Assembly: GCA_003599625.1 (NCBI GenBank)
Contig: QZIU01000008.1
Coordinates: forward strand, 1,690-65,689
Direction: 5' to 3'
DNA length: 64,000 nt
Source: Candidatus Parcubacteria bacterium
GTDB taxonomy: Bacteria > Patescibacteriota > Minisyncoccia > UBA9983
Within the stretch, counting starts at the first letter, position 1, and each line of letters starts with the position of its first letter. The notes below the pieces were generated by a model that saw nothing but the letters and a program-made list of their open reading frames with translations, did not search any database and was not told the DNA's origin. A program made the position numbers and the translations under genes. Of the stretch, positions 13,796 to 57,567 are shown in pieces.

Positions 13796-13810
13796 ACTAA
13801 CCATCTTGTG

Positions 13811-13874: not shown

Positions 13875-13907
13875 TCGCCTTTTTCCTTAAAATAAAACAA
13901 AAGCAAA

Positions 13908-30392: not shown

Positions 30393-31112
30393 ATGGCCGA
30401 AACTGAAATAAAAAAACTTTCAATAATAATACCCGCATATAACGAAATTAAGACTATTGAGGAATTGATAGAAAAAGTGGAGGCAGTAAAGCTGCCTTTG
30501 CTTAAAGAAATAATAGTTGTGGATGATTGCTCCACGGATGGCACTGCTGAGGTATTGGTTAAATTAGGCGGAAAAAAGGAAAATCTCAAAATTATTCTCA
30601 GTCGAAAGAACGGAGGGAAGGGCTCAGCTTTAAAATCAGGATTTTTTGCTGCCACGGGTGATATAATAATAATTCAGGATGCTGATCTGGAATATGATCC
30701 GGAAGAATATGGAATATTAATAGAGCCGATGTTGCTGGGAAAGGCGGACGTTGTTTACGGCTCTAGGTTCTTTACCGGAAAAGCAAAAAGGGTGCTTTAT
30801 TTTTGGCATATTTCTGCCAATCTTTTTTTAACCTTTCTTTCTAATTTATTAACCGGGCTTACCCTTACGGATATGGAGACGGGGTATAAAGCTTTTCGCA
30901 GAGAAGTGGTTGATTCGTTTAAAAGTGATATCAGGGCAAAAAGATTCGGTATTGAGCCGGAAATAACGGCAAAAATTGCGAAGGGAAAATGGAGGATTTA
31001 CGAGGTTGGCATTTCATACTATGGGAGGACGTATACTGAAGGAAAAAAAATAAGTTGGAAAGACGGTATTGCGGCAATTTGGCACATAGTTCGATTTAAT
31101 TTATTCAAGTGA
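30393..31112 (+). CDS. Glycosyltransferase family 2 (polyprenyl-phosphate glycosyltransferase, DPM1/GtrB-like, soluble)
   Basis: LSIIIPAYNE...VVDDCSTDGT and QDADLEYDPEE (DxD) motifs. Confidence 0.85.
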   Translation: MAETEIKKLSIIIPAYNEIKTIEELIEKVEAVKLPLLKEIIVVDDCSTDGTAEVLVKLGGKKENLKIILSRKNGGKGSALKSGFFAATGDIIIIQDADLEYDPEEYGILIEPMLLGKADVVYGSRFFTGKAKRVLYFWHISANLFLTFLSNLLTGLTLTDMETGYKAFRREVVDSFKSDIRAKRFGIEPEITAKIAKGKWRIYEVGISYYGRTYTEGKKISWKDGIAAIWHIVRFNLFK

Positions 31113-31123: not shown

Positions 31124-32527
31124 ATGAAGGTAATGCTTTTAAAACCGTATTCGGCATCGGATGAGTTGATACCGCCATTCGGGTTGGGTTATTTGGCCAC
31201 GGCTATCAGGGATAAACACGAGGTGGAAGTTGTTGATGGCATTAAAGACAAAATAACACCGGATAAGTTCGAAAAAATTATAGAAGGAAAGAATTATGAT
31301 GTTATTGGCATCCAGATTTTCACTTTCCATATTCCGATAGCCAAAAAATACATACAAGCAATAAAAAAAATTTCTCCTTCAGCAAAAATAATACTCGGCG
31401 GTCCTCATCCCTCGTGCAGCCCGGCAAATATTTTTGGAATTTTCCCCGATATTGATTGGGCGTTTAAAGGGGAAGCAGAAATTGGCTTAGCCAAGCTTCT
31501 TGAGCTGATTTCTGGCGGTAAAACGAATGAGGAAAATCTTGCGATTGTACCTGGTTTAATATGGAAAAAAGGAGAAGTGGCAAATGTTAATAAACAGATA
31601 TTTGTTGATAACCTTGATGAGCTGGGTATGCCTAGCTGGGATTTGTTAAAACCGAATACTTACCCCCTTTCTCCTCATGGCGGCTTTTTCAAAAATTATC
31701 CGATTGCGCCAATAATTATAACCAGGGGATGTCCATTTTCATGCACTTATTGCGCCGGACATTTGGTTAGCGGGAAAAAGATAAGATTCCGCAGTATTGC
31801 CAAGGTTATAGAGGAAATAAAAGTTCTTTATCATGATTATGGGATAAGAGAAATCCACATAGAAGATGACAACTTTACCATGCGGCATGAATTGGTATAC
31901 AAGTTTTGCGATGAGTTGAAAAAAAATAATTTGAAAATAACATGGACTTGTCCAAATGGCGTTAGACTGGATACGTTAACCGAAGATCTGCTTTTTGCAA
32001 TGAAATCCGCGGGCTTATACAGCATATCCGTCGGCATAGAGTCTGGTTCGAAAAGAATACTCAAAGAAATGAAAAAAAGCATAACAAAAGAGAAGATAAA
32101 AGAAAAAATCAACCTTATAAAAAAATGCGGCCTTGAAGTGTCTGGATTTTTTATCATAGGTTACCCGTCTGAGACAAGAGATGATATTATGCAAACTATA
32201 AATTTCGCTCTCGAGTTGGATCTTAAAAGAGCCGGCTTTTCTCTTTTTAAACCTTTCCCGGGGACCGAAGCTGCCGATAATCTTATAAAAAGCGGGGATC
32301 TTGACGCGATGACCGACGAAGACTGGAGTAGATTTGTTTTGGCTGATACTGTTTATGCTCCGCCCGGTTTTACAAAGAAAGAAATGAGGCTGCTTCGCAG
32401 GAAGGCCTTGATAAGGTTTTATTTCCGGCCAAAAATATTCTTTAAGTTTGTAAAAGAAATTAGAAATTTTGATCATCTGAAGCTTGTAATTAAAAGAGCT
32501 TACAGTTGGCTTGTTGCCTCCAGGTAA
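31124..32527 (+). CDS. B12-binding radical SAM enzyme (class B radical SAM, probable C-methyltransferase)
   Basis: N-terminal cobalamin-binding-like domain plus a radical SAM CxxxCxxC motif (GCPFSCTYCAG). Confidence 0.85.
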   Translation: MKVMLLKPYSASDELIPPFGLGYLATAIRDKHEVEVVDGIKDKITPDKFEKIIEGKNYDVIGIQIFTFHIPIAKKYIQAIKKISPSAKIILGGPHPSCSPANIFGIFPDIDWAFKGEAEIGLAKLLELISGGKTNEENLAIVPGLIWKKGEVANVNKQIFVDNLDELGMPSWDLLKPNTYPLSPHGGFFKNYPIAPIIITRGCPFSCTYCAGHLVSGKKIRFRSIAKVIEEIKVLYHDYGIREIHIEDDNFTMRHELVYKFCDELKKNNLKITWTCPNGVRLDTLTEDLLFAMKSAGLYSISVGIESGSKRILKEMKKSITKEKIKEKINLIKKCGLEVSGFFIIGYPSETRDDIMQTINFALELDLKRAGFSLFKPFPGTEAADNLIKSGDLDAMTDEDWSRFVLADTVYAPPGFTKKEMRLLRRKALIRFYFRPKIFFKFVKEIRNFDHLKLVIKRAYSWLVASR

Positions 32528-33995
32528 AATGAAACAAATCTCAAAAATTCGCTTAATAATGATTTCTTTGTTATTAGCCTCAGCAGTTTTTCTGATCACT
32601 TTTCGGTTCGCTGAAACGCCTAAAGTCTGGATAGATGAAGGTATTTTTACGGAGACGGCAAAAAATTTAGCCGTAAAAGGCAATTCCGGCATTCAGATAA
32701 ACCCTCAAAAAATAATATCTTCAGCAGCCTGGTCAACCGCTGGGTATCCGCTTATATTTCCTGTTGCAGCAAGTTTTAAAATATTTGGCGTTGGGCTTAT
32801 GGAGGCGCGTTTGCCTATGCTTATCTATTTGATGGGATTAGTCGTTGCTTTTTATGTTTTCTCCTTTAGAGTCGCCGGTTTCTATGCCGGGGTTTCTTCG
32901 GTTCTGCTTCTTTTAAGTTTTTCTCCCTTTTACGGGAATGGCAGGCCTGTCCAAGGGGAAATACCTGGTCTGGTGTTCTTTATTTTTGCTTCAGTATTTC
33001 TTTTTAATTGGGAAAAAAGAGACTTCAAAAAAACAGCTCTTCTTTTTTGGTCGGGATTATTTTTTGGTTTGGCTGCTTCCTCTAAACCTCTATATTTAAT
33101 GCTAATCTTGCCGACATTGCTATTGATCTCAATTTTGATCAAGAAAAAAGGCGGTTATTTTAAAAATCTGATTTTTTTTGGAGGGGGCTTTATTATTCCC
33201 TTGGTGTTGTGGTTTTTTACCCAGTTTCCTAATTTTTCATTGTTCCAAAAAGCTCTCCGGATTTATTTTACGGCCAACCCTGACGCCTCGGTCTCTTCCA
33301 CCGATTCCATCTTAAGTAATATTCCAAAATTTTTTAGCGAATCAACGCCAATGCTATTTATGGCGATGCTTTTTCCAGCTGTTATTTTTTACTCTATAAA
33401 AGTAATAAAAAGAAAAAAATATACCATTGCTGAAGTTGCCATTTTGATTTTTATAATCTTGAACCTGTTTGCCTTTTTAAAGGGGCCGGGTTGGTATAGA
33501 CATTTTTTTCCGGGGCATATTTTGTTGTATTTAATAATACCTGTTATTTTAATTGAGTCGTATAAATTCTTTTTAGAAAAAAAACGTTTAAAAAATATAG
33601 CAATAGCGATCCCAATTATTTTTATTGTATTTACCGCGACGCAGTTTTATCACTTGTTGTTTTTGTCCCAAACTTCTTTTGTCGTAAAAAGAGAAAGGAA
33701 TAAGCAACTGGCGGAAGTTTTAGGTCAAATAAAGGCGAACAAAACGGTTTTTCTTTACAATGCCATAGAAGCTGCCATTTTTTTAAGGCATGATAATTAT
33801 TTTCAATATCTTAAACCTTCCGATTACTTGGAAGAAGGAGATAAAAATATTTTGAAAGAGCCATATACTGATTTCATTTTAATTCATGCCGATGAAGCGC
33901 AACAACAAGGCTTTGATCCTAAATGTTATCGGAAAAAGGAGATCGATCAATATTATTTATTTGAAAAAACACCAGATTGCTTAAAGGTATCATGA
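32511..33995 (+). CDS. GT-C fold membrane glycosyltransferase (ArnT/PMT family-like)
   Basis: ~11 TM helices with the N-terminal periplasmic-loop motif PKVWIDEG. Paralogous to 43999-45477. Confidence 0.7.
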   Translation: MLPPGKMKQISKIRLIMISLLLASAVFLITFRFAETPKVWIDEGIFTETAKNLAVKGNSGIQINPQKIISSAAWSTAGYPLIFPVAASFKIFGVGLMEARLPMLIYLMGLVVAFYVFSFRVAGFYAGVSSVLLLLSFSPFYGNGRPVQGEIPGLVFFIFASVFLFNWEKRDFKKTALLFWSGLFFGLAASSKPLYLMLILPTLLLISILIKKKGGYFKNLIFFGGGFIIPLVLWFFTQFPNFSLFQKALRIYFTANPDASVSSTDSILSNIPKFFSESTPMLFMAMLFPAVIFYSIKVIKRKKYTIAEVAILIFIILNLFAFLKGPGWYRHFFPGHILLYLIIPVILIESYKFFLEKKRLKNIAIAIPIIFIVFTATQFYHLLFLSQTSFVVKRERNKQLAEVLGQIKANKTVFLYNAIEAAIFLRHDNYFQYLKPSDYLEEGDKNILKEPYTDFILIHADEAQQQGFDPKCYRKKEIDQYYLFEKTPDCLKVS

Positions 33996-34786
33996 TTTCA
34001 TTTATAAAAAAAATCTTTTACTTACCCGAAGCGGCAGAATGGTTGATGAGAAAAGATAGTGCTGATAATTATATTATTCACAGAAGAATAATATCTAAAA
34101 AAAAGCTTTTACGGAAAATTTATTCATTTTACTTCTCTGAAGTGACAGGGCATTTTAGTTATTTGAAGGAAAAGAAGATAATTGAAATTGGCTCTGGGGC
34201 TTGGAGTATGTCATTGTATAATCCTAAAATTATTTCTTCCGATCTTATAAAAAACAAATTCGTAGAAATGTCTGTAGATGCCCAAAAAATGCCTTTTAAA
34301 GACAATGATCTTGACGGTATTGTCATGATTGATGTCTTGCATCATTTACCAGACCCTGAAAAATTTTTTCTTGAAAGTGTCAGAGTCTTGAAAAAAGGAG
34401 GGCGAGTCGCAATGATAGAACCATATCTTAGTCCTCTTGGGAAATTATATTATAATTATATCCACCATGAAGAATGCGATCATAAGTCCTTGTCATGGAG
34501 TCTGCCTCAGGCTTCCGGGCGCTTAAGCGGATCAAATTTAGCAACCCCTTTCAATATTTTCATAAGAGACAGGGAATTATTTAGAAATAAGTTCAAAGAT
34601 TTAAAGGTGCTAAAAATATCTCTTCATACGTGTTTTTCTTATTTTTTGTCCGGAGGTTTGTCTTTTCGGTCATTAGTTCCCAATTTTTTAGCTGGTTTTA
34701 TAATGTTTTTAGAAAGAAAGATATTTTTTTTATACCCCTATCTGGCAAGTCAGATGACTATTGTATTGGAAAAAAAAGATAATTGA
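33977..34786 (+). CDS. Class I SAM-dependent methyltransferase
   Basis: IEIGSGAWS (motif I) and VLKKGGRVAMIEP. Confidence 0.75.
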   Translation: MLKGIMISFIKKIFYLPEAAEWLMRKDSADNYIIHRRIISKKKLLRKIYSFYFSEVTGHFSYLKEKKIIEIGSGAWSMSLYNPKIISSDLIKNKFVEMSVDAQKMPFKDNDLDGIVMIDVLHHLPDPEKFFLESVRVLKKGGRVAMIEPYLSPLGKLYYNYIHHEECDHKSLSWSLPQASGRLSGSNLATPFNIFIRDRELFRNKFKDLKVLKISLHTCFSYFLSGGLSFRSLVPNFLAGFIMFLERKIFFLYPYLASQMTIVLEKKDN

Positions 34787-35427
34787 CATTTAAAATCATG
34801 AACCTAATTTTACCAAAAAAAGAAAAACTTATAATGACCAACGCGGAAGATCCCTTAAAATATTATTATTGGCCAATTGCCAGTTCTTTTTATAAGAAAA
34901 GGTTACTTGATGTAATCTCACTGTTGGGGAATAAAAGATATGAAAAGATTTTAGATATTGGATTCGGCAGTGGGATTCTATTTCCCGAGCTTAGAAAAAA
35001 GGCCGGAGAATTGTATGGATTGGAAACACATGATAAGGTCATGGATGTTCAAAGTGCCCTGGCGGACATGGGCGTCCGGACATTTTTGAGTAAAGGAAGT
35101 ATTTTGAACATGCCATATGAAGAAAATTTTTTTGATGCGATTGTTTCAGTTAGCACGCTGGAGCATGTAAAAGAACTAGAGGAAGCATCCAATGAAATAG
35201 TCAGAGTCCTAAAGCCCGGGGGTGTTGCGGTGCTTGGTTTTCCCGCGCGCAACTTCATTACGGACTTTATTTTTACAATTTTCGGAAATAATCCGAGAGA
35301 ACTGCACCCATCGAGCCACAAAGACATTCTTTCAGTCTTCGACAAAAAGATGTTAAGAGGAAGGGTTATAAAGTTTCCTCAATATTTTTTTAACTTATAC
35401 GTGTCGGTTCTTTTTATAAAGAAATAA
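34783..35427 (+). CDS. Class I SAM-dependent methyltransferase
   Basis: ILDIGFGSGIL motif I and VLKPGGVAVLGFP. Confidence 0.75.
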   Translation: MTFKIMNLILPKKEKLIMTNAEDPLKYYYWPIASSFYKKRLLDVISLLGNKRYEKILDIGFGSGILFPELRKKAGELYGLETHDKVMDVQSALADMGVRTFLSKGSILNMPYEENFFDAIVSVSTLEHVKELEEASNEIVRVLKPGGVAVLGFPARNFITDFIFTIFGNNPRELHPSSHKDILSVFDKKMLRGRVIKFPQYFFNLYVSVLFIKK

Positions 35428-35428
35428 T

Positions 35429-37303
35429 ATGTGCGGAATAGCCGGGTCAAATGATGAAAATTTTATATTAGGAAAAAACGATCTTAAGCATAGAGGACCG
35501 GATTCTTTTAACGCTTTTAAAGAAAGGGGAATGAATTTTTACCACTGGCGGCTGGCGATAATTGATCCGACTGAAAACGGCAATCAACCCATATTCAATG
35601 AAGATAAAACAATATCGGCTATCTTTAATGGAGAAATTTATAATTATCTGGAGCTTAGGGATAAATATCTCAAAAAACATCAATTTTATACTAATACCGA
35701 CACAGAAGTAATAGTCCACATGTATGAGGAATTCGGAGAGCGATTCGTGGATTATCTAAACGGGGACTTTGCCATATCGCTTTGGGACAATAAAACCAAT
35801 ACACTTTTTTTATATAGGGATCGCCTGGGTATAAAGCCTCTTTATTATACGTCAGAAAGAGGAAAGTTATATTTTGCTTCTGAAATAAAACCGCTCTTAA
35901 AAGCGGCTCATTTAAAGCAAGATAGGGAATTGGATTTCTGTTCCATTGATTCTTATCTGAGATATCGTTACATACTCAGCCCGGAGGATACTTTTTTTAA
36001 AAGAATAAAAAAACTTTTGCCCGGTCATTTTCTTGTGTGGAACACTTGCCAATTTGAGATAAAAAAATATTGGGATGTGAAATTTTTGCCAAATCCGGCA
36101 ATAAGAAAAGAGGAATATGTTGCCAAATTTGCCTCTTTATTTTCCGATTCTGTTCGTTTAAGGATGATATCGGATGTTCCCGTGGGCGCCTATTTAAGCG
36201 GCGGTATCGATTCCAACAGCGTAGTTGCGGAGATGAAGAAACATAACATGGCGGAATACCCGATAAGAACTTTTTCAATAGGTTTCAAGGGGAGTACAGA
36301 TGAAACATTTTTAGCCAGTAAATATGCCGCGTTTCATGGGACTAACCATCAAAGTTTTTATTTAAAACCAGATGATTATAAATGCTATAAGGAATTGGTT
36401 CATTATTTAGACGAACTCGTGGGAGATCCAATTATTTTACCTACCTACATTCTTTCCAAAATGGCTTCCGAAACCGTAAAGGTTGTGCTTACCGGCGAGG
36501 GTGCCGATGAAATCCTCGGAAGCTATATTCATCATTATGCCGTTTACTATGTCTCCAAATATTGGACAGTTTTGCCAAATATTTTTAAAAATATCTTCAT
36601 CGTTATAATGAAGTTAATACCGCACAATATCTTTAACAAAATTTTTCCTTATCCCGCCGATCTTGGAAAGAATGGGAAAGAAAAGGTAATTGCTTTTTTA
36701 AAAAACAGCAAGGGAAATCTGAAGATTGCCGACTTGATAGAACTTTTTAATGAAGACGAGAGGAAGAAATTGTTTAATATTGACCTAAATATTTTTCATT
36801 TTGACAGATCAAGGAATAATATAGATTCCCGATCCATTAATGACCTTCTGACCTTTGACTTGAAACATTGGCTTCCAAACTATACTTTACTAAAACAAGA
36901 CCGCCTGGCAATGGCGAACGGAATCGAAAGCAGAAGTCCTTTTCTCGACCATCGGCTTGTAGAACTAGTTTCTCAAATCCCGGATAATCTAAGGGTTAAA
37001 AATTTTAAAACTAAAGTTATTTTGCGGCAAGCTATGTCAAAAAAACTGACCAAAAAAATCACCAAAGCAAAGAAAAAGGCCTTTTATTTGCCGCTTACTG
37101 CTGTTTTTGACGAGAACTTCTGGTTGTTTGTTAAGGATATATTGTCCAAAAAAAATATTGAAAAAATAGGTATTTTAAACTACACTTATATAAACCAGCT
37201 ATTAGGAGAGGAAAAAAATTTATTAAATACAAAGAAAATTTTCAATATTTTCCTTCTCCAGCTTTGGTTTGATGAATTTATAGCTTCGGATAAAAAAATA
37301 TGA
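35429..37303 (+). CDS. asnB: Asparagine synthase (glutamine-hydrolysing)-family amidotransferase
   Basis: N-terminal MCGIAG Cys nucleophile and the PP-loop SGGIDSNSVVA. Confidence 0.9.
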   Translation: MCGIAGSNDENFILGKNDLKHRGPDSFNAFKERGMNFYHWRLAIIDPTENGNQPIFNEDKTISAIFNGEIYNYLELRDKYLKKHQFYTNTDTEVIVHMYEEFGERFVDYLNGDFAISLWDNKTNTLFLYRDRLGIKPLYYTSERGKLYFASEIKPLLKAAHLKQDRELDFCSIDSYLRYRYILSPEDTFFKRIKKLLPGHFLVWNTCQFEIKKYWDVKFLPNPAIRKEEYVAKFASLFSDSVRLRMISDVPVGAYLSGGIDSNSVVAEMKKHNMAEYPIRTFSIGFKGSTDETFLASKYAAFHGTNHQSFYLKPDDYKCYKELVHYLDELVGDPIILPTYILSKMASETVKVVLTGEGADEILGSYIHHYAVYYVSKYWTVLPNIFKNIFIVIMKLIPHNIFNKIFPYPADLGKNGKEKVIAFLKNSKGNLKIADLIELFNEDERKKLFNIDLNIFHFDRSRNNIDSRSINDLLTFDLKHWLPNYTLLKQDRLAMANGIESRSPFLDHRLVELVSQIPDNLRVKNFKTKVILRQAMSKKLTKKITKAKKKAFYLPLTAVFDENFWLFVKDILSKKNIEKIGILNYTYINQLLGEEKNLLNTKKIFNIFLLQLWFDEFIASDKKI

Positions 37304-38118
37304 AGACAGTGGAAGAAGTAAAAAATTACTGGAGCAGAAACCCATTGTTCAGCTTGGAGGTAAAAAACCCCGGATCTCCTGATTTTTTTAACGCAATCGA
37401 TGAAATAAAAAAAAGAGATGTGGAATCTTTCGCCATGAATTACTGGGATTTTAAAGGCTTTAACGGCAAGAAGGTATTGGATGCGGGATGCGGGCCTGGT
37501 TGGCTGACAGTAAGCTATGCGGTGGAAAAAGCCGAGGTTTATTCTGTTGATTTGACAAAGGCAGCGGTTGAACTGACTAGAAAGTTTTTGGATCATAAAA
37601 AAGCTTTTGCTTATGTGGAAGAAGGAAGCGTTGAAAAGCTAAAATTCGAAAATAACTTCTTTGATTTGGTTGTCAGTTCCGGAGTGATACATCATACTCC
37701 TGATCTTGGAAAGGGTTTTAGAGAATGTTTTAGGGTTTTAAAACCCGGAGGGGTTGCAAAGATTACTCTTTATCATAAGGGCATCTTGCACAACAAATTT
37801 GTTTTTCCAGTGATTAGGTTTGCTATGAAAATGATAAATTTCAATAGACCTGGAGCCAATCTGCCTTCTGCAAAAGACGCTGATGATTTTATAAGACAAT
37901 ACGATGGTCTAAATAACCCGGTTGGTATAGGAATGAACGCTTCCAGTTGGTCTGATGAGCTTAAAAAAGCCGGTTTTGTCATAGAAAATTTTGAACTGCA
38001 TTTTTTTCCTAAAAGATTTATCCCTTTTGGCCAGCTTATTCCTGTGTGGTTTCATTATTTGTTGGATCGTTATTTTGGGACAATGATCTACTTTAATTTG
38101 CGCAAACCCAATAACTAA
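37300..38118 (+). CDS. Class I SAM-dependent methyltransferase
   Basis: VLDAGCGPGWLT and VLKPGGVAKI. Confidence 0.8.
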   Translation: MKTVEEVKNYWSRNPLFSLEVKNPGSPDFFNAIDEIKKRDVESFAMNYWDFKGFNGKKVLDAGCGPGWLTVSYAVEKAEVYSVDLTKAAVELTRKFLDHKKAFAYVEEGSVEKLKFENNFFDLVVSSGVIHHTPDLGKGFRECFRVLKPGGVAKITLYHKGILHNKFVFPVIRFAMKMINFNRPGANLPSAKDADDFIRQYDGLNNPVGIGMNASSWSDELKKAGFVIENFELHFFPKRFIPFGQLIPVWFHYLLDRYFGTMIYFNLRKPNN

Positions 38119-38121
38119 GAC

Positions 38122-38997
38122 ATGCATGTATCCATAATATTGCCTGCCTATAACGAAGAAGAAGCTATCGGTAAAGTGATAGACGATGTTACATTTGCAA
38201 TGAATAATTCTTCGTACAAAGATGAGTATGAAATCTTGGTAATAGACGACGTGTCGCAAGATTCAACCGCAGAAATAGCCCAAACTAAAGCCGCAAGAGT
38301 AATAAAAAGAAAAGTTCGGGGAGGGTCGGGCGCCAGCAGAAAGACCGGAATTCTTGAGTCAAAGGGCGAAATAATAGTAATGCTTGATGCGGATGACACC
38401 TATACGGCTTCCGATATACCTAAAATGCTGGAATTTTTTCCAGAATACGACCAGGTTAACGGAGCGAGAGATTCCGAGAAAGGGACTATTAAATTTTTAC
38501 GAGTCCCCACTAAATGGGTTATACGAAAGATTGCTTCTTATTTAACCGGCGTAAACATACCGGATCTAAATACGGGATTTAAAGCTTTTAAAAAAGAATT
38601 AATGCTAAAGTACATGTGGGTCATACCCGATGGGTTTAGTTGCGTTACAACGATGACCCTGGCTTTTTTGTGCAATGGGCACAGCGTAAAATATTTGCCC
38701 ACAAATTACAAAAAAAGAAAGGGGTCTTCCAAATTTCATATCGTTAAAGATACTTCGAAATATCTGCAGACAGTTATCCGAATGATAATATACTTTAATC
38801 CGTTAAAGTTCTTTTTGCCGTTTTTTGTTGTCGTGTTTAGTATCGGCATTTTAAAGGTTTTAGTTGAGTTTATTTGGCTTAGCCATCGCGTTCAAGCTTC
38901 CAGTATCATAATCATATTGGCAAGCGTGAATATTTTCTTTTTCGGCGTGATTGCCGATCTTTTGGTCAGTCAACAGAAGGCCAGGAATAATGCCTAA
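38122..38997 (+). CDS. Glycosyltransferase family 2 with C-terminal TM helices (GtrB-like polyprenyl-phosphate glycosyltransferase)
   Basis: VSIILPAYNEE...VIDDVSQDST, DAD motif, two C-terminal TM segments. Confidence 0.85.
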   Translation: MHVSIILPAYNEEEAIGKVIDDVTFAMNNSSYKDEYEILVIDDVSQDSTAEIAQTKAARVIKRKVRGGSGASRKTGILESKGEIIVMLDADDTYTASDIPKMLEFFPEYDQVNGARDSEKGTIKFLRVPTKWVIRKIASYLTGVNIPDLNTGFKAFKKELMLKYMWVIPDGFSCVTTMTLAFLCNGHSVKYLPTNYKKRKGSSKFHIVKDTSKYLQTVIRMIIYFNPLKFFLPFFVVVFSIGILKVLVEFIWLSHRVQASSIIIILASVNIFFFGVIADLLVSQQKARNNA

Positions 38998-39002
38998 TTT
39001 TA

Positions 39003-40595
39003 ATGAGTATTGAAAATATTTTAATAAATTCGGTAAAAAAAACACTCTCTTGCCTTGATACAAACACATATTCGGAAACTTTTGGTTGTTTTGATAGAGA
39101 TTTTTGGCATTACAAAACCCTCAGGGATTTTCCCTCCGCAACCTATCAACAAAGCGTTTTAACATTGGCGCTCGTTTTTAAAAATGATTTTCCCGGGAAT
39201 ATCTTTTTTAAAAATCAAAGATGCTTGGAATTTATAACAGCCGGCATAAAATACTGGTCGAGAATACAGAACAAAGACGGGTCTTTTAATGAATGGTTCC
39301 CCAACGAACATAGTCATGTCGCGACCGCATTTACAACTTATGCGGTCACGGAAACGCTGTTGCTCTTGAAAGAAGATTTAGAAATTTCTAAAGGTGTCTT
39401 AGAGAGCATCAAAAAAGCCGCCGATTGGTTGTCCAATAATTCTGATTTTTTGGTTACAAATCATGCTGCCGGAGCTGCCGTTGCTTTGTATAATAGCTTC
39501 TTAATCACTCAAGAAAAAAAATATTTGGATTCATCAAGAAAAGAAATTGAAATAGTTTTAGGCAATCAGGACAAAGAGGGTTGGTATTTGGAATATGATG
39601 GTTGCGATCCAGGTTATTTGAGTGTAACGGTTGACTTCTTGGCAAGGTATTATCATAAGTCAGGCGATCAGCATGTTTTTGATTCCTTAGCCAGCGCGAT
39701 TAAATTCATGAAATATTTTCTTCATCCTGACGGATCTTACGGGGGAGAATACGGTTCAAGAAACACTAAATATATGTTTACCGGCGGTTTAACTTTTCTT
39801 TTTGAAAAACTTCCGGAAGCAAAAAAAATATTTAACGAATATTGGGAAAAAAGATGCTTCGATGTTGGATTTTCCTCTGATGATCGGTATTTATTTTTTT
39901 TCTTTCTGCCCAATTATCTCGAAACTTTTTTATTTGTTGAGAAAAATAGCAAGAATAAACCGGAAGAGAAAAAAGAGAATCAGGAATTTTTTGAAAAAAA
40001 CTTTCAAAGCGCGGGAATTTATGCCAAAAAGACCGAAAAATTCCATATCGTAATAAATTACAACAAAGGGGGAATCATAAAAATTTTTTCAAATGCAAAT
40101 GGAGAGATGATCTACAGCGACACGGGATATTTAATAAAAACAAATAAAGGCATATATCATTCGCAAGGCTCAAGGAAGTCGAATAATACTTTTCAAAAAA
40201 ATGTCGCCACAAAGAAATTTTCTATTCAGAATAATTTTGTTTTGCTTAAGAACAAACACCCCCTTAAGAAGAGTTTGATTTTTTTCAGATTGTTTAATTA
40301 TACATTTGGAAAAAACAACAAGATAATGAGCGCCTTCAACAAAGCTTTAAAAAAGAGGATGATTCTAAGGGAAAAAACGGCAAAGATCAAGCTGATCAGG
40401 AAAATTGAAATTCAAGCAAAATCTGTTAAGATAGAAGACGAGATTATAAATAATTCTAATTTGATCATAATAGAGAAAAAAAGGACAAGCGTTTTTTCTT
40501 CTCGACACGTTCCTTCTTCAAGAATTTTTAGAAGTAATGACTTTTTTTCTCCGGAGATAAGCGGGGCGGAAAAAATTTTAGAAATAAAATTTTAA
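39003..40595 (+). CDS. Hypothetical protein, possibly alpha/alpha-toroid repeat fold
   Basis: Repeated DGS(F/Y)xxW/E-like segments. No catalytic motif recognised. Confidence 0.3.
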   Translation: MSIENILINSVKKTLSCLDTNTYSETFGCFDRDFWHYKTLRDFPSATYQQSVLTLALVFKNDFPGNIFFKNQRCLEFITAGIKYWSRIQNKDGSFNEWFPNEHSHVATAFTTYAVTETLLLLKEDLEISKGVLESIKKAADWLSNNSDFLVTNHAAGAAVALYNSFLITQEKKYLDSSRKEIEIVLGNQDKEGWYLEYDGCDPGYLSVTVDFLARYYHKSGDQHVFDSLASAIKFMKYFLHPDGSYGGEYGSRNTKYMFTGGLTFLFEKLPEAKKIFNEYWEKRCFDVGFSSDDRYLFFFFLPNYLETFLFVEKNSKNKPEEKKENQEFFEKNFQSAGIYAKKTEKFHIVINYNKGGIIKIFSNANGEMIYSDTGYLIKTNKGIYHSQGSRKSNNTFQKNVATKKFSIQNNFVLLKNKHPLKKSLIFFRLFNYTFGKNNKIMSAFNKALKKRMILREKTAKIKLIRKIEIQAKSVKIEDEIINNSNLIIIEKKRTSVFSSRHVPSSRIFRSNDFFSPEISGAEKILEIKF

Positions 40596-40606
40596 ATAAT
40601 CAAAAG

Positions 40607-42064
40607 ATGACTAATCCAAAAACATTATTGCTTGTTCCTCCTTCAAAATTTAGCAAGAATGTTGCCAGGGATCTTGTCTATGGCTGCTGGTGCAAAGGGA
40701 AAAGGATAGCGGGGGTTACTTTCCCGCCGGTATCTTTGGCCATGATCGCAACCGTTCTAAGAAAAAACGGATTGGATGCGGACGTTCTCGATGCTGCCGG
40801 AGAAGGCTTGGGATTGGATGAAGTATTAAAAGAAACATCGCAATACGATTTTTGCATTATGTTGACTTCATCCATGACTCTTAATGAAGATGCCGAAATA
40901 CTTGATACTGTCAAAAGAAATAATCCAAGAATAATAACTGTTGTTTTTGGGGGACATGTAACTGCGGAGCCAAAGAGCACTCTCTCCAGAAAGGGTATTG
41001 ACATTGTCGTCAGGAGGGAGGCCGAGTTTATTATAAAGGACATTGTTTCATCCTTTAGGTCGGGCGATGATTGGCGGAAAATCATGGGCATCTCCCATAT
41101 GGATGACGGCAAGTATTACGAAAACCCGCCATACCCTTTGATCGAGAATCTTGATGATTTATCCGTTCCTGATCGGCAATTGCTTTCCGAAAAAATAGAT
41201 TACTTTAATCCATTGGTAAAAAGAATGCCTTATACCACCATGTTTACAAGCCGAGGTTGTCCCGGAGCCTGCACTTTTTGTTCTTCGCCGACTTTTTATG
41301 GCAGAAGTATCAGGTTTATGAGCGCAAATCGCGTGCTGGAAGAGATGAAGGAGTGCGCCAAGCTGGGGTATAGGGAAATTTTCTTTCGTGATGAAATTTT
41401 CACCGCTTCTAAGAGCAGGGTGATTGAAATTTGCGAAGGAATCAAAAAAGCGAAGCTGGATATTTCTTGGATATGCAGTTCTCGAATAAATACCATAGAT
41501 AAGGAGATGATGGTAAAAATGAAAGAAGCCGGTTGTCATATGATAAGATTCGGGGTTGAGTCCGGCTGTCAGGAGTTGCTCAATAATGTTAAAAAGGGAA
41601 TCAAAGTGGAAAAGATAAAAGAAGTTTTTAGGTGGGCGAGAGAGGTTAGGTTGGACACTCATGCCCATATGATGATTGGCATACCTGGAGAAAGCCATGA
41701 GACACTAAAAAGAACTTTAAGATTTTTAAAAGAAATTAAACCCACCACCGTAACTTTCGGAATATTGACGCCTTATGCCGGGACGGAACTTTTTGATAAA
41801 CTGAAGGAGTATCATCCGGAAATGGGCGATGGCACCACGATGGATGTTTCAAAGCTGCATACCCACGCTTATTATAATGAGTATTTTACCAAGCTGACCG
41901 CCACAGAACTGCAAAAGTACATAAGAAAGGTTTACAGGAATTTTTATCTTAATCCGCGATATATAATTAGAAGACTAGTCAGTATAAGAAATAAAGACGA
42001 GTTTAAGAGAACGGTTTTAGCCGGTCTTGATGTGTTTAATTTTGTTTTCGGCAAAGATGATTAA
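40607..42064 (+). CDS. B12-binding radical SAM enzyme
   Basis: SRGCPGACTFCSS radical SAM motif after a cobalamin-binding-like N-terminal domain. Confidence 0.85.
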   Translation: MTNPKTLLLVPPSKFSKNVARDLVYGCWCKGKRIAGVTFPPVSLAMIATVLRKNGLDADVLDAAGEGLGLDEVLKETSQYDFCIMLTSSMTLNEDAEILDTVKRNNPRIITVVFGGHVTAEPKSTLSRKGIDIVVRREAEFIIKDIVSSFRSGDDWRKIMGISHMDDGKYYENPPYPLIENLDDLSVPDRQLLSEKIDYFNPLVKRMPYTTMFTSRGCPGACTFCSSPTFYGRSIRFMSANRVLEEMKECAKLGYREIFFRDEIFTASKSRVIEICEGIKKAKLDISWICSSRINTIDKEMMVKMKEAGCHMIRFGVESGCQELLNNVKKGIKVEKIKEVFRWAREVRLDTHAHMMIGIPGESHETLKRTLRFLKEIKPTTVTFGILTPYAGTELFDKLKEYHPEMGDGTTMDVSKLHTHAYYNEYFTKLTATELQKYIRKVYRNFYLNPRYIIRRLVSIRNKDEFKRTVLAGLDVFNFVFGKDD

Positions 42065-43394
42065 AAGAGAAAAAAAAATAATAATATTGATCACAATCGC
42101 AATTTTTATTTTTTCACTGGCGATTTCTTTTACCCTCAGGATCCCGCCTGAAGTTGATGCCAGGGCTTACGATAGAATTGCGGTTAATCTTATAAACGGA
42201 AGCGGTTACATTGAGGATGCCGGAAAAAACCTTGCAGACGATTTTTCCATCGCGAGAGTCGGTCCTGGCTACGAATTCTTCCTTGCCGGAATTTATAAAA
42301 TATTTGGTCATCGATATTGGGTTGTTTGGTTTTTCCAGGCATTATTGCACGCCTTAACCGCATTTCTTGTCTACGAAATATCAAAGAGAATATTTAAAAG
42401 CCAATGGAGATCAACGGCTGGATATCTGGCGGCTTTGCTAGTTGGTTTTTCGCCAGACTTGCTCTTGGCAAGCTCAATGTTGTTGACGGAAACTTTGGGT
42501 ATTTTTCTTATGGTGTCGGCTGTATATTTATTTTTTAGATATTTTGATGATAACAGGCTTATAATTCTTGTTGCTTCGGCCATTTTTTTTGGAGTTGCCG
42601 TGCTTACCCGCTCCCAATTGGTTGTATTCTTGCCGATCTTCGCGGCTCCCTTGCTCTTTAAAAAAGAGTGGATGAGGGTGACTATTTTTATTCTGCTATT
42701 GGCTGCAATTTTTGCCCCATGGGTTGCAAGGAATTACAAAGTTTACAACGAGTTTATACCGTTTAACGCTTCCTTAGGCTACAACCTCTGGGGTGGAAAT
42801 CACATTGGGGCCAGCGGGGAAATGGAGACAAATTACGCGCCTTTGATAGAATACGCGGTAAATCATATGCCTATTGAGGTTAATGAAGAAGGAGTTTCCA
42901 AATTTAAAGAGTTTCTTATTGATCATCCTGTTGATTTTATAAAATTGATCGGGAAAAAGATTTCAATATTTTTCAGTTTCAGCAGGCCGACTGGTTTTTG
43001 GCCGACCCTATATCCTTTCCAGCAGGCAGCCATCGCCTTCTTTTCGCTGATTTATTCCGTCTTGATATTTGGCTTGGGGATTTCCGGGGGCGTATTGATG
43101 GTAAAAAAACTTAAAACGATGGATCAGTCGGAGAAGATCAAGACAATTTTCGCCCTTGCCATGGCAGTATTGATACCTCTTTCCGTTATTGTTATTTTAG
43201 TGGAAAGTCGGTACAGGTATCCGATATATCCTTTTATGGCGATTTTTGCCGGATATTTGGCATCACACAAGAATGAAGTTTTTAAAAATCTTAAATATCC
43301 CTTGATGGTTTTTGCTATATTGTTTTTAAATTCTTTTTTTGATTTTTTTGCGAATTTTGAAAGATTTTGGGATAAATTTAAAGAAATTCTTTAA
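42057..43394 (+). CDS. GT-C fold membrane glycosyltransferase (ArnT/GT39/GT83-like)
   Basis: Multi-TM protein. Start set at MIKREKK, overlapping the radical SAM stop by 8 nt. Confidence 0.65.
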   Translation: MIKREKKIIILITIAIFIFSLAISFTLRIPPEVDARAYDRIAVNLINGSGYIEDAGKNLADDFSIARVGPGYEFFLAGIYKIFGHRYWVVWFFQALLHALTAFLVYEISKRIFKSQWRSTAGYLAALLVGFSPDLLLASSMLLTETLGIFLMVSAVYLFFRYFDDNRLIILVASAIFFGVAVLTRSQLVVFLPIFAAPLLFKKEWMRVTIFILLLAAIFAPWVARNYKVYNEFIPFNASLGYNLWGGNHIGASGEMETNYAPLIEYAVNHMPIEVNEEGVSKFKEFLIDHPVDFIKLIGKKISIFFSFSRPTGFWPTLYPFQQAAIAFFSLIYSVLIFGLGISGGVLMVKKLKTMDQSEKIKTIFALAMAVLIPLSVIVILVESRYRYPIYPFMAIFAGYLASHKNEVFKNLKYPLMVFAILFLNSFFDFFANFERFWDKFKEIL

Positions 43395-43396
43395 TT

Positions 43397-44002
43397 ATGA
43401 CGCAAAACTACATCAAGCCCGGCTATATTACCAAGGATCGCTGGAATAATTATTGGTATCAAATCGATAGCTTGAAAAGATTTAGAAATGCCAAGACAGT
43501 TTTAGAGATTGGACCTGGTAATAAAGTCGTAAACGATATGTTGAAGAAGCTCGGTTTCTTGGCGAAATCTGTTGATGTAGACAAGTCGGTTTCTCCGGAT
43601 TACATAGCATCCGCGGAAAAAATTCCCGTGGATGATAAAAGTTATGATTTGGTTTTAGCCGCAGAGATAATAGAACATCTTCCTTTTGAAAAAGTTGACG
43701 AAGTTTTGGAAGAAATCAAGAGGATTGCCAAGACAGGGGCTGTAATTTCTCTCCCGCACTCCGGCTATACGCTTTCTTTGGGCTTTAAAGTTCCTCTTAT
43801 AAAGTGGAAATTCGGAATTTTAAAAATCCCGCACTTTTGGCGAAGAAAAACTTCCACAGAAGAGCACTTCTGGGAACTTGGATTAAGGAATTATCCGGTC
43901 AGGAAATTTAAAAAAATTCTTAAAAAGGCAGGTTTTAAAATAATTAATAATTTTATTGGGCACGATGACCCATCCCACATTTTCTTTGTCTTGGAACTAT
44001 GA
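43397..44002 (+). CDS. Class I SAM-dependent methyltransferase
   Basis: VLEIGPGNKVV motif I. Confidence 0.7.
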   Translation: MTQNYIKPGYITKDRWNNYWYQIDSLKRFRNAKTVLEIGPGNKVVNDMLKKLGFLAKSVDVDKSVSPDYIASAEKIPVDDKSYDLVLAAEIIEHLPFEKVDEVLEEIKRIAKTGAVISLPHSGYTLSLGFKVPLIKWKFGILKIPHFWRRKTSTEEHFWELGLRNYPVRKFKKILKKAGFKIINNFIGHDDPSHIFFVLEL

Positions 44003-45477
44003 CAAGTGTTCAAAAAAAGGACTTGTTTTTAATCGGGATTTTATTAGCCATAACTGGTTTTTTCTTTTTTAACGATTTTTTAACGGCTCCCAGGGTTGCC
44101 TGGGACGAGGGATTAAATCTTAACCTCGCCAAAAATCTGGCAGAATTTGGCAAGTGGCAGGTACAGGAATCGCCCGGCCAATTTTCCGGGCAAACTCATT
44201 TTTATTCAACCGGGTGGACAATCCTTTTTCCGTCCGCCGTTATTTTTAAAATTTTTGGCGTCAGTTTTATGGCGGGCAGATTGATGATGTTTGCTTACTT
44301 GACTGGGTTCTTGATATTATCTTTCTTTTTGGGAAAAATGTGGTTTGGAAGGAGCGCGGCTTTTCTTGGAGTCCTTTTAATAGCCGTATTTACTCCCGTT
44401 TATACTTACGGCAAGCCCCTTTTGGGAGAAATACCAAGCTTGTTCTGGCTGGTTCTTGGTATCTTGCTTTTTGAAAAATTAAAGCAAAAATGGCAATGGC
44501 AACATGCCGCATTGACCGGATTTTGCTTTGGAGCAGCAGCCGCTTCAAAGTTAACATATGTAATCTTATTTTCTCCCGTTGTTGCGATAATGGCTTTAAC
44601 ATACTTTGCCAGAAAGAAAGTCTCATTAATTTGGTTGCTATTTTTTACCCTTTCCTTTTTTGTGGCAATTGCTCCCGTCTTATGGTTTTCTTTCTCTTTT
44701 GCTGTCTTAAATTCCTCATTTGGCGAAGTAATTTCATTTTATTCAAACAATCATGCTTCCAGTTGCCTCTCCTGCGACGTGAAAAATAATTTCATAAAGT
44801 TTTTTACTTCCAAAAGTCTCCTTTATACCGGTGTATTGATGATGATTGCTATTTTGGGGGCGTTAAAAATCTTTATCAAAAACAAGACTTTGCATTACGC
44901 CGTTTGGGGAGCCGGTTTGTATGGACTGTTAACTCTGACTTACTTCTTTAAAAGTCCCGGGGTTGTCAGATATCTTTTGCCGATACAAATCATCGTAATT
45001 TTTGTCGCTCCGTTTTTAATTATTAGGCTGGCTGACAATTTATCAGAAGTTATTAAAAATAAAATTTTTTTAAAAAGGCTTGGTTGGGCGCTCATTGCTT
45101 TGCTTGTTTTATTCAATCTTTACTCAATTATAATCTCAGGTTATGCCACTTCATCATCAGCTCCCGTTGAGATGGAAAAGTATGTAAAGAATTATTTGCC
45201 CAAAGAAGGGATGGTGGGCGTTATTAATCTTCCCGCTTTAGCCGCGGTTATCCCTTCTCATAGATTGATAAACTACATAAGAATAGACAATCAAACAGAC
45301 AGAGCGGTGGGGATCAACCCCCTTGCATTTAACAAAGAAGAAATGCCAGAATTTTTGATTTTTGACGAGTCTAACGGAAAAACAGAAAAAGATCTCAGGC
45401 CATTCAATGACAAGCTGGAGAATTTATATGCAAAAATTTTTGAAGCTGAAAAGTATAAAATTTTTCAATTAAAATGA
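43999..45477 (+). CDS. GT-C fold membrane glycosyltransferase (paralog of 32511-33995)
   Basis: PRVAWDEG loop motif and the shared KIFGV motif. ~11 TM helices. Confidence 0.7.
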   Translation: MTSVQKKDLFLIGILLAITGFFFFNDFLTAPRVAWDEGLNLNLAKNLAEFGKWQVQESPGQFSGQTHFYSTGWTILFPSAVIFKIFGVSFMAGRLMMFAYLTGFLILSFFLGKMWFGRSAAFLGVLLIAVFTPVYTYGKPLLGEIPSLFWLVLGILLFEKLKQKWQWQHAALTGFCFGAAAASKLTYVILFSPVVAIMALTYFARKKVSLIWLLFFTLSFFVAIAPVLWFSFSFAVLNSSFGEVISFYSNNHASSCLSCDVKNNFIKFFTSKSLLYTGVLMMIAILGALKIFIKNKTLHYAVWGAGLYGLLTLTYFFKSPGVVRYLLPIQIIVIFVAPFLIIRLADNLSEVIKNKIFLKRLGWALIALLVLFNLYSIIISGYATSSSAPVEMEKYVKNYLPKEGMVGVINLPALAAVIPSHRLINYIRIDNQTDRAVGINPLAFNKEEMPEFLIFDESNGKTEKDLRPFNDKLENLYAKIFEAEKYKIFQLK

Positions 45478-46818: not shown

Positions 46819-47748
46819 ATGAATGGAAAGATAGGAATTGTAGGAGTAGGAGTGGTTGGAGGATATAGAAAAACTTGGTTCGAAAGCGAAGGGTATAAAA
46901 GAGGCCGTTCACTCTTTCTTAGAGATTTCCGGAAAGGGTATTATGACAAGCTGACTGAACCTGATTTGATCTTCATATCAGTTTGTCCGCCGGCTAAAAA
47001 TCCCAGAAAATCAACTTTTCTTTTGGTAAGATCTGTAATAAAAAAACTTCCTTGTAGAAAGGTAATTGTTATTAACTCAACCCTGGGGATAGGTCATACT
47101 CTTAAGCTGCAGAATGAGTTTAAACATCACTCTCTGTTCTTTAATCCAGAATTTATATGGATGCCTGATGGGTTTAAAAATACCATTGAGCCAGAGAGAC
47201 AAATAATCGCGCCAGCCATTAAATCTGAGCAAACAAAAGAAATGGCAATGCAAATCCTGCGACTTTTGCCAAAGGCGATAAAATTTGAATCGCCATCGGA
47301 CGAAGTTTTTTTGTCTTCTACAGAGGCTGAAATAGTGAAATTATTCACTAACTTCTACATTTCTCAGCAAGTTGATTTTTCTAGTCTGCTTTACGAGGTG
47401 TGCCAAGATATGGAAACTTACAGAAAGATTATGGGAACTATGTTACACGATGATAGAATTTCCCCTTCCCACTTAATCAATCCAATTCATGGAGGGTATG
47501 TTGGCTGGGGAGGGCATTGTCTTATAAAAGATGCTTATCAGCTCAAGAATAGCCTGGAAGGCAAGGAGAAGAAGAGGGTAATCGCTTCACTGTCTTACAA
47601 TAAAGCAGTTTTGAAGGGCCAAGGAATAACGGAAAGCGAAGCGGCTCTTAAAAAAACTTCCAGACATAATGGAATAAAGCAGAAAGGAGGAATAAACAGT
47701 GAACAAGAAAGTGATTTTCGTAACAACTCCAGTCTTGGAGTTGGATGA
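46819..47748 (+). CDS. Hypothetical Rossmann-fold protein (possible truncated nucleotide-sugar dehydrogenase-like)
   Basis: GIVGVGVVGG dinucleotide-binding motif. Preceded by AAGGAG RBS. Confidence 0.35.
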   Translation: MNGKIGIVGVGVVGGYRKTWFESEGYKRGRSLFLRDFRKGYYDKLTEPDLIFISVCPPAKNPRKSTFLLVRSVIKKLPCRKVIVINSTLGIGHTLKLQNEFKHHSLFFNPEFIWMPDGFKNTIEPERQIIAPAIKSEQTKEMAMQILRLLPKAIKFESPSDEVFLSSTEAEIVKLFTNFYISQQVDFSSLLYEVCQDMETYRKIMGTMLHDDRISPSHLINPIHGGYVGWGGHCLIKDAYQLKNSLEGKEKKRVIASLSYNKAVLKGQGITESEAALKKTSRHNGIKQKGGINSEQESDFRNNSSLGVG

Positions 47749-57543: not shown

Positions 57544-57567
57544 AAATTACAGAAAGGAAGACGCAAT

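Follow-up and report, generated by a model that had tools for sequence, protein, structure and literature searches.

How is a radical S-adenosylmethionine (SAM) enzyme related in function to the membrane glycosyltransferase encoded beside it? The question is raised by a 64,000-nucleotide (nt) stretch of contig QZIU01000008.1 from a Candidatus Parcubacteria bacterium (hereafter the window, meaning that whole stretch), in which a gene for a radical SAM protein with a B12-binding-type domain is twice followed by genes for a GT-C-type membrane glycosyltransferase and a class I SAM methyltransferase. An earlier note on this DNA read the arrangement as a twice-repeated, iterative cassette whose radical SAM and GT-C members are obligate, translationally coupled and probably physical or functional partners. 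The analysis reported here draws attention to the genes upstream of each radical SAM gene, and leads us to propose that two, perhaps three, modules for tailoring sugar donors are present in the cluster, as parts of a three-component system of lipid-linked glycosylation, a proposal that we regard as evenly balanced between right and wrong.

The gene order itself is as the earlier note described it, with Pfam domains placing radical SAM, GT-C and methyltransferase genes in that order at 31124–34786 and again at 40607–44002. The first set consists of rSAM1 (31124–32527; B12-binding, E = 2e-18; Radical_SAM, E = 2e-28), GTC1 (32529–33995, the longest open reading frame (ORF) running from a TTG at 32511; PMT_2, 28.2 bits; 10 predicted transmembrane (TM) helices) and MT1 (33992–34786, longest ORF from 33977; Methyltransf_11). 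The second consists of rSAM2 (40607–42064; by Pfam a radical SAM protein with a B12-binding-type domain, HpnJ/AprD4-like), GTC2 (42057–43394, longest ORF from 42027; PMT_2/ArnT-like, with PMT_2 at 61.1 and PMT at 31.8 bits; 8 TM helices) and MT2 (43397–44002; best NCBIfam match the sugar O-methyltransferase MftM, weak). These genes, like all others of the glycan cluster given with coordinates below, lie on the + strand. A third GT-C-type gene, GTC3 (43999–45477; PMT_2, 30.3 bits), is a paralog of GTC1, as had been noticed (31% identity over 389 amino acids (aa), E = 4e-36; both proteins have DEG after the first TM helix and a KIFGV motif). Similarly, a third radical SAM gene with a B12-binding domain, rSAM3 (47699–48982; GTG start with an AAGGAGG ribosome-binding site), does stand directly before the gene for a Wzx-type flippase (48979–50415; Polysacc_synt; 9 TM helices). 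None of the three radical SAM genes looks like a pseudogene, because the CxxxCxxC motif is intact in all of them (C203 in rSAM1, CPFSCTYC; C218 in rSAM2; C183 in rSAM3, CPFKCAFC) and their domains are full length, PF04055 scoring 99.9, 89.7 and 89.7 bits in rSAM1, rSAM2 and rSAM3 (cut-off 29.5) and PF02310, the B12-binding domain, 66.8, 50.7 and 51.5 bits (cut-off 32.1).

Judged by their protein sequences, the two cassettes are analogous, not duplicated. rSAM1 and rSAM2 are 27% identical, and MT1 and MT2 share 24% identity over 109 aa of the Rossmann core. Between GTC1 and GTC2, BLAST finds no significant similarity (E = 0.056), and their relationship shows at profile level only (hhalign 96%, E = 4.6e-9, over the N-terminal 206 columns, with the loop-1 Asp aligned). 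These low identities rule out a recent tandem duplication, and the earlier idea of a cassette repeated as copies does not hold. The claim of 8–17 nt overlaps between radical SAM and GT-C genes fared unevenly. The start of GTC2 at 42057 does overlap rSAM2 by 8 nt, whereas the 17-nt figure hangs on the TTG at 32511; an in-frame ATG at 32529 (MKQISKIRL...) aligns with homolog N-termini, is the probable start of GTC1 and leaves a 1-nt spacer after rSAM1. For MT1 the ATG at 33992 is the probable start, so that the gene overlaps the stop codon of GTC1 in an ATGA. Of the 33 operon junctions 15 overlap and 24 are 12 nt or less, with a median of 1 nt, and since tight junctions run operon-wide, overlaps do not single out the radical SAM/GT-C pairs or signal a specific or physical partnership between them. 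The recurrence of the order can be set against chance: with the 31 cluster genes in random order, the probability of at least two rSAM–GT-C junctions is 0.019 and that of at least two rSAM–GT-C–methyltransferase runs is 2.7e-4, both tests being post hoc.

Which partners accompany the radical SAM genes elsewhere can be seen from related loci, about 95 of which were compared in all (labels such as L084 and L095 denote individual loci). The rSAM1 family comprises more than 100 clusters at 49–74% identity, with 2460 matches among the candidates scored, and every organism-named source belongs to the Patescibacteria. A metagenome scan gave 11 rSAM1 loci, of which 8 were useful, and these were supplemented with 8 contigs encoding rSAM1 homologs. 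In the window, rSAM1 directly follows GT2a (30393–31112; Pfam Glycos_transf_2), a small soluble GT2 resembling DPM1, PpgS and ArnC. This pairing recurs: GT2a orthologs (64–69% identity) abut or overlap rSAM1 orthologs (68–71%) in L084, L095, L098 and L099, and a small GT2 adjoins the rSAM1 homolog in 8 of 11 informative loci. Of 13 loci, 10 encode a PMT_2 or other polytopic protein within 5 kb of the rSAM1 homolog, 6 of them directly beside it, and in L085, L086, L095 and L098 such a gene begins 3–17 nt after the rSAM1 ortholog. The GT-C found there is GTC1-like in L086 (34%), GTC2-like in L095 (38%) and an unrelated 569-aa PMT_2 protein in L098, where the GTC2 ortholog (41%) follows a GT2–LPG_synthase_TM pair and not rSAM1. 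A conserved donor combined with a changing acceptor would be expected to produce such variation in GT-C subfamily. The methyltransferase, proposed as the third member of the cassette, has no conserved position in related loci, MT2 orthologs in L084 and L097 lying at other places.

The rSAM2 family (about 482 aa, 36–75% identity; 1806 homologs at E <= 1e-20 among the candidates scored) spans both domains, being found in the candidate phyla radiation (CPR), Omnitrophota, Planctomycetota, Spirochaetes and Desulfarculales among bacteria and in Woesearchaeota, Aenigmatarchaeota and Methanosarcinales among archaea. Eighty genome loci were collected, 72 of which could be used for clustering neighbours within four genes; a subset of 52 had at least 2.5 kb on both sides. 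The top neighbour cluster, present in 52 of the 72 loci, is a GT2 of about 299 aa represented in the window by GT2b (38122–38997), a membrane-anchored enzyme with two C-terminal TM helices that resembles polyprenyl-phosphate sugar synthases. Next in frequency come a Pfam-less soluble protein (window 39003–40595, here called unk530; 30/72), a methyltransferase of about 279 aa (20/72) and an AsnB-like amidotransferase (window 35429–37303; 17/72). In the 52-locus subset a GT2b-like gene occurs in 44 (85%) and a member of the unk530 family in 29, the latter usually directly upstream of the rSAM2 homolog, and C-terminal TM helices are predicted in 43 of 43 strong GT2b homologs beside rSAM2 genes. 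GT-C genes keep a looser company. A polytopic protein is encoded at the +1 position in 10 of 65 loci, and among 44 polytopic rSAM2 neighbours Pfam identifies 18 as PMT_2, 3 as STT3 and 3 as YfhO. An iterated GT-C profile finds a match within 8 kb in 26 of the 52 loci but directly adjacent in only 4, and single-sequence phmmer searches with the three window GT-Cs detected hardly any homologs in the vicinity of rSAM2 genes. In the window, the conserved block reads (AsnB – methyltransferase –) GT2b – unk530 – rSAM2, with the GT-C as a looser associate, and it therefore starts upstream of the second cassette as first drawn; GT2a, upstream of rSAM1, likewise falls outside the first. In the archaeal loci L027, L031 and L046, polytopic proteins of about 1000–1160 aa are encoded two genes from the rSAM2 homologs; these are probably the three proteins with STT3/AglB-type Pfam matches, and if so, the module may feed archaeal N-glycosylation.

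These comparisons bear directly on the reading of the radical SAM and GT-C proteins as an obligate, coupled pair within a duplicated cassette. It draws on the twofold order, on the 1-nt spacer and the 8-nt overlap between the window genes and on the short gaps after rSAM1 orthologs in the four loci named above, and a functional link between the two proteins remains plausible, given that their co-localisation recurs. What does not survive is a fixed pair: the GT-C partner is not orthologous between genomes, GTC2 orthologs follow rSAM1 in one place and other genes in another, and direct rSAM2–GT-C adjacency is rare. Moreover, radical SAM enzymes need cytoplasmic SAM and reductant, while GT-C enzymes have outward-facing active sites and take their sugars from polyprenyl-phosphate donors. 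With catalytic sites on opposite membrane faces the two enzymes share no step, and any partnership must run via a lipid-linked intermediate. Taking this together with the low similarity of the cassette components and the wandering methyltransferase, we consider the coupled-pair reading very improbable.

If the intermediate is lipid-linked, the identity of the conserved GT2 partners becomes central. PF00535 is found in GT2a, GT2b and a further GT2, GT2d (59522–60454; ArnC/GtrB-like, with three predicted TM helices, two of them C-terminal), and in each case the closest families are enzymes that act on lipid-phosphate carriers. Among NCBIfam models, GT2a matches AglJ (110 bits), ArnC, PgfS and PpgS best, all below cut-offs; GT2b matches AglJ (139 bits, full length), a Dol-P-hexose transferase and ArnC, again below cut-offs; and GT2d matches ArnC (167 bits, full length, below cut-off) and PgfS (124 bits). 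PpgS is among the matches of all three. In the Protein Data Bank (PDB), GT2a is closest to the Pyrococcus Dol-P-Man synthase 5mlz (7e-22), ArnC and GtrB, and GT2b to 5mlz and ArnC. The window thus encodes three GT2s resembling lipid-phosphate-sugar synthases and three GT-Cs, so that their numbers match, and GT2d is a candidate donor synthase for the third GT-C.

The GT-C assignment is itself drawn from several signals. GTC1 and GTC3 exceed the PMT_2 gathering score of 26.1 bits only narrowly; all three proteins have 8–10 predicted TM helices and an acidic residue after the first of them (DEG at residues 36–38 in GTC1 and GTC3, D34 within EVDARAYD in GTC2). An AlphaFold2 (AF2) model of GTC1 built from a two-sequence alignment (GTC1 and GTC3) reached a pLDDT of 39, too poor to show the fold, and the GT-C alignments used as profiles gave no significant match against PDB sequences. 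By what is established for the family, these proteins would take polyprenyl-phosphate-linked sugar donors.

What the radical SAM enzymes would do to such a donor can be narrowed only in part. HpnJ (TIGR03471) is the best NCBIfam match of rSAM2 and rSAM1, with scores of 290.7 bits for rSAM2, 191.9 for rSAM1 and 117 for rSAM3 against a cut-off of 577.6, and the AprD4-family diol-dehydratase model (NF033070) gives 168.4, 103.3 and 74.8 bits, respectively, against 500; with scores so far under the curated cut-offs, orthology to HpnJ or AprD4 is ruled out. AprD4 bears the NCBIfam name of a radical SAM sugar diol-dehydratase. Among solved structures, AprD4 and QCMT lie nearest to all three proteins, and the AprD4 structure 6fd2 matches rSAM2 at 4e-38 over residues 6–396. 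AprD4 has a B12-type domain yet does not bind cobalamin, whereas QCMT is a true B12-dependent C-methyltransferase acting on protein (PMC12931638). Because the nearest relatives differ in this way, cobalamin use and reaction type cannot be read from the sequences of rSAM1–3; the chemistry could be C-methylation, or a dehydration or rearrangement like those of AprD4 and HpnJ.

We propose the following sequence of events. At the cytoplasmic face, GT2a, GT2b and perhaps GT2d would use a nucleotide sugar to glycosylate polyprenyl phosphate, as their homologs suggest. The neighbouring radical SAM enzyme would then remodel the lipid-linked sugar by 5'-deoxyadenosyl-radical chemistry, a step to which the conserved gene adjacency points, with class I methyltransferases as possible helpers and, in the second module, also unk530 and the AsnB-like amidotransferase. 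The tailored lipid-linked sugar would be flipped across the membrane, and GTC1, GTC2 or GTC3 would, in keeping with established GT-C function, attach it to an acceptor outside, which would be either a surface protein or the heptose-containing glycan that GT4 enzymes build and Wzx exports. In this scheme the GT2–radical SAM pair would define the donor and an exchangeable GT-C the acceptor. Conserved GT2–radical SAM pairing combined with exchangeable GT-Cs makes these four steps the simplest fit to the neighbourhood data.

In the strongest competing explanation, the cytoplasmic substrates of radical SAM tailoring, for example by C-methylation, would be soluble nucleotide sugars or a growing repeat unit linked to undecaprenyl pyrophosphate. 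No GT-C would be involved, and the adjacency would be a product of dense operon packing. Tight junctions across the whole operon are what this explanation would lead one to expect, as are the many radical SAM genes in L090 and L098 that do not adjoin a GT-C gene. Genes for short-chain dehydrogenase/reductase (SDR) epimerases or dehydratases also recur beside rSAM1 homologs: the window has one at 28219–29268 (Pfam GDP_Man_Dehyd/Epimerase; NCBIfam matches below cut-offs), which probably supplies a nucleotide sugar, its homologs occur in L084 (52% identity), L095 (27%) and L097 (32%), Pfam Epimerase genes are present in L100 and L101, and in related loci an SDR gene is repeatedly found near GT2a–rSAM1 pairs. 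AprD4, furthermore, acts on a free pseudodisaccharide and not on a lipid. Against generic packing stand the abutment of GT2a and rSAM1 at 64–71% identity and the presence of GT2b together with rSAM2 in 85% of loci, spanning phyla and both domains, which exceed what packing alone would give, as well as the type of the partner GT2s, which are of the lipid-phosphate-sugar-synthase and not the chain-elongating kind. On balance we think this alternative unlikely, though it deserves to be taken seriously.

Alternatively, the target of the radical SAM enzymes might be a lipid, be it the polyprenyl carrier, a membrane lipid or a glycolipid head group, with the GT2s making glycolipids, not donors. Radical SAM chemistry of the lipid type is exemplified by HpnP/HpnR, Tes/GrsA and calditol synthase. 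The NCBIfam models matched include HpnJ, HpnR and one for a ladderane-lipid radical SAM enzyme, all scoring far below family cut-offs, and archaea and anaerobes whose lipids are unusual commonly carry members of the rSAM2 family. It counts against this explanation that most of lipid synthesis is missing from CPR bacteria, and the surrounding genes are those of glycan formation (GT4, Wzx, heptose pathway, carbamoyltransferase, GT-C) and not of lipid synthesis. Lipid-modifying radical SAM enzymes are a growing class (PMC13459092), but given the genomic context we hold a lipid substrate to be highly improbable here.

Several observations weigh against the lipid-linked donor scheme itself. A nucleotide sugar or an undecaprenyl-pyrophosphate-linked repeat unit as substrate would explain the adjacency almost equally well. 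rSAM3, which sits between a UDP-glucose-dehydrogenase-like gene and Wzx, lacks any GT2 or GT-C neighbour and is better accommodated by the nucleotide-sugar or repeat-unit alternative. No GT2 reaches a curated polyprenyl-phosphate transferase cut-off (AglJ 325, ArnC 529, PpgS 370), and GT2a has no TM helix, in which it is like PpgS or DPM1. The half of the 52 rSAM2 loci outside the profile matches counted above has no GT-C-profile match within 8 kb, the rSAM1 neighbourhood sample of 13 loci is small, and the GT2 and GT-C co-occurrence counts stand without a background rate for glycan clusters generally. The window contains no GtrA-like or MprF-like flippase ORF and no small multi-TM ORF; in related loci, GtrA_DPMS_TM or LPG_synthase_TM proteins encoded between GT2 and GT-C genes are flippase candidates. 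Finally, two rSAM1 homologs (L096 7001–8395, 63% identity; L102 5001–6395, 52%) stand alone among housekeeping and nucleoside-salvage genes, without glycan genes, and are not explained by the proposed scheme. An AbiEii gene adjoins the solitary homolog in L096.

Other rSAM1-related loci display variations on the same gene content. L101 carries an array of the order PMT_2 – GT2 – rSAM – epimerase – rSAM – GT2 – rSAM – GT2 – PMT_2 – PMT_2. L090 is an extreme multi-radical-SAM glycan cluster with six B12-domain radical SAM genes in one run, in which (5062–14272) four radical SAM genes in tandem are followed by a GT2 and a radical SAM/SPASM gene and then by a fifth radical SAM gene. In L097, a 483-aa methyltransferase–GT2 fusion (5532–6983) lies directly upstream of the rSAM1 homolog and ties O- or N-methylation to a GT2 resembling lipid-phosphate-sugar synthases. 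L099 has genes for a cysteine desulfurase, NifU and an FNR-like reductase between its rSAM1 ortholog and PMT_2 gene (8682–11300), and L095 has a 63-aa ferredoxin gene inside the cluster (3006–3197); these look like dedicated Fe-S assembly and electron supply, and they would fit active radical SAM enzymes.

The soluble protein encoded between GT2b and rSAM2 is unk530 (39003–40595). The window protein has no Pfam or NCBIfam match, although 29 of 36 homologs show a weak match to Pec_lyase, and with neither a TM helix nor a signal peptide it is predicted to be cytoplasmic. Its AF2 model (pLDDT 89.6, pTM 0.92) is an (alpha/alpha)-toroid plus beta-sandwich, which Foldseek relates to PL8/PL33 lyases, GH127 and dermatan-sulfate (DS) epimerase 1 (E down to 4e-8, probability 1.0, TM-score about 0.5, 9–11% identity). 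N153, H241 and R253 are invariant in the family and Y250 nearly so; they are candidates for the Asn/His/Tyr/Arg catalytic set of PL8-type lyases and uronate epimerases. A predicted carbohydrate-lyase/epimerase fold can thus be given to a family of more than 1200 members hitherto listed as 'hypothetical' proteins. From the AsnB-like enzyme and the nearby UDP-glucose-dehydrogenase-like remnant, a uronic-acid substrate is a reasonable guess.

The genes discussed so far belong to a glycan-biosynthesis island, recognised by Pfam and NCBIfam on the + strand at about 24.7–60.5 kb of the window. The GC content of the island is 0.35–0.41, compared with mostly 0.43–0.51 in the upstream housekeeping flank (P-type ATPase, RluA, NusG, RecA, FtsK), which fits either horizontal acquisition or the kind of compositional bias that surface-glycan loci usually show. 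The island encodes several GT4 enzymes, an SDR epimerase/dehydratase, four GT2s, the three B12-domain radical SAM proteins, the three PMT_2-type polytopic (GT-C) proteins, five class I methyltransferases, an AsnB-like amidotransferase, the Wzx flippase, a carbamoyltransferase and a radical SAM/SPASM protein. Between the two cassettes lie a second class I methyltransferase (34783–35427; Methyltransf_11, 67.9 bits), the AsnB-like glutamine amidotransferase (35429–37303; Asn_synthase and GATase_7, above the TIGR01536 cut-off), whose amidation target is possibly a sugar carboxylate, and another class I methyltransferase (37300–38118; Methyltransf_11, 79.7 bits). The Wzx-type flippase would export a lipid-linked repeat unit that the GT-Cs decorate. 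A GDP-heptose-type pathway is represented by a nucleotidyltransferase, a GHMP kinase, a SIS isomerase, a HAD phosphatase and a transaldolase; this nucleotide-heptose pathway (55871–59468) looks complete and implies a heptose-containing glycan in a CPR bacterium. A scan for promoters and terminators over 27.5–47.4 kb found terminator-like sites at background level, none of them at a gene boundary.

Some further features of the window stand apart from these modules. The short UDP-glucose-dehydrogenase-like ORF (46819–47748, 309 aa) matches only in its N-terminal and central domains, the C-terminal UDP-binding domain being absent, and may represent a gene that is truncated or in decay. Its last 50 nt overlap the beginning of rSAM3, where rSAM3 has its strong ribosome-binding site. 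The radical SAM/SPASM protein is encoded at 54675–55772, and its like recurs beside B12-domain radical SAM genes in L085, L090, L097 and L100. At the border between the higher-GC flank and the low-GC glycan island, among GT4 genes, an AbiEii toxin gene (23870–24646) is preceded, with a 59-nt overlap, by a 205-aa ORF that is probably the AbiEi antitoxin (pair at 23311–24646). Two large proteins encoded upstream of the island, one of 1185 aa with a peptidoglycan-binding domain (10238–13795) and one of 1066 aa with lamin-tail and beta-helix domains (17515–20715), are probably surface proteins and possible glycosylation targets.

The interest of these modules lies in the enzymes at their centre. 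B12-domain radical SAM proteins are among the largest enzyme pools of unknown function, and to our knowledge no member of the rSAM1 or rSAM2 family has been characterised; a GT2 synthase on one side and a GT-C on the other provide a concrete, testable substrate hypothesis for both families. More broadly, and somewhat short of even in our estimation, B12-type radical SAM enzymes may form a widespread class acting on polyprenyl-phosphate-linked monosaccharides, the C-methylated, deoxygenated or ring-rearranged products of which would be installed by GT-Cs. If true, radical SAM chemistry would extend to a class of substrate for which it has not been shown before, and the GT2–radical SAM pair would be a portable 'exotic donor' module spread across CPR bacteria, Omnitrophota, Planctomycetota, DPANN and methanogenic archaea. 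CPR and DPANN envelopes mediate an episymbiotic lifestyle and their chemistry is almost unknown; unusual sugars would be predicted on these surfaces. The full-text literature searched, outside which most subscription-journal papers lie, holds no description of modules combining a GT2, a B12-domain radical SAM protein and a GT-C.

Comparison with known systems shows both where the proposal has precedent and where it departs from it. In the ArnC-ArnD-ArnE/F-ArnT system, which places L-Ara4N onto lipid A, an undecaprenyl-phosphate sugar made by a GT2 is tailored in the cytoplasm while lipid-linked, flipped and transferred outside by a GT-C, and GT2a, GT2b and GT2d all have ArnC among their best matches. 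The Arn tailoring enzyme is a deformylase, whereas here a B12-type radical SAM protein, with methyltransferases, would take its place; moreover, the window has no ArnE/F-type flippase, and none of its proteins reaches the Arn equivalog cut-offs. The GtrA/GtrB/GtrC and CsbB/GtcA/YfhO systems also join a GT2 of the polyprenyl-phosphate sugar synthase type to a polytopic GT-C that decorates an exported polymer, and GtrA-domain, LPG_synthase_TM and YfhO proteins occur in related loci. Those systems move an unmodified hexose and have no radical SAM component, and the window for its part has no GtrA-like gene. In the mycobacterial DprE1/DprE2 route, a sugar is converted on polyprenyl phosphate and then used by the Emb/Aft GT-C enzymes. 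This decaprenyl-phosphate-arabinose (DPA) route, together with PpgS/Rv3779, resembles the present scheme in coupling a lipid-linked conversion to a GT-C, and PpgS recurs among the GT2 matches; the conversion there is a flavin/NADH redox epimerisation and not a radical SAM reaction, and the proteins are unrelated. If the present proposal is right, a radical tailoring step is added to the Arn/Gtr/DPA logic of extracytoplasmic glycosylation.

Radical chemistry on a lipid-borne sugar has its own parallels. HpnI is a GT2 and HpnJ, the family model that rSAM2 and rSAM1 match best, a B12-domain enzyme. In the HpnI-HpnK-HpnJ route to bacteriohopanetetrol cyclitol ether and in that of calditol synthase Cds, a sugar is placed on a membrane lipid and is then proposed to undergo radical SAM rearrangement, and HpnJ has been linked by genetics to the conversion of lipid-linked glucosamine to a cyclitol ether (PMC13459092). 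The window differs from these in that the scores are half or less of the HpnJ cut-off, in that it has no hopanoid genes, and in that the lipid would be a polyprenyl-phosphate carrier whose product is passed to a GT-C. AprD4, the enzyme of apramycin C3'-deoxygenation, which acts on a sugar diol, offers a structural parallel to rSAM1–3, as does QCMT, the MCR glutamine C-methyltransferase, although the latter methylates protein (PMC12931638). For unk530, the (alpha/alpha)-toroid plus beta-sandwich of the PL8/PL33 lyases and dermatan-sulfate epimerase 1 is the nearest likeness. It departs from these families in being cytoplasmic, without a signal peptide and paired with a radical SAM enzyme, and we know of no radical SAM pairing for those lyases or for the dermatan-sulfate epimerase families. 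The component superfamilies and the three-component glycosylation logic are known; what is new is the proposed tailoring by radical SAM enzymes and how widely it would be distributed among uncultivated anaerobes.

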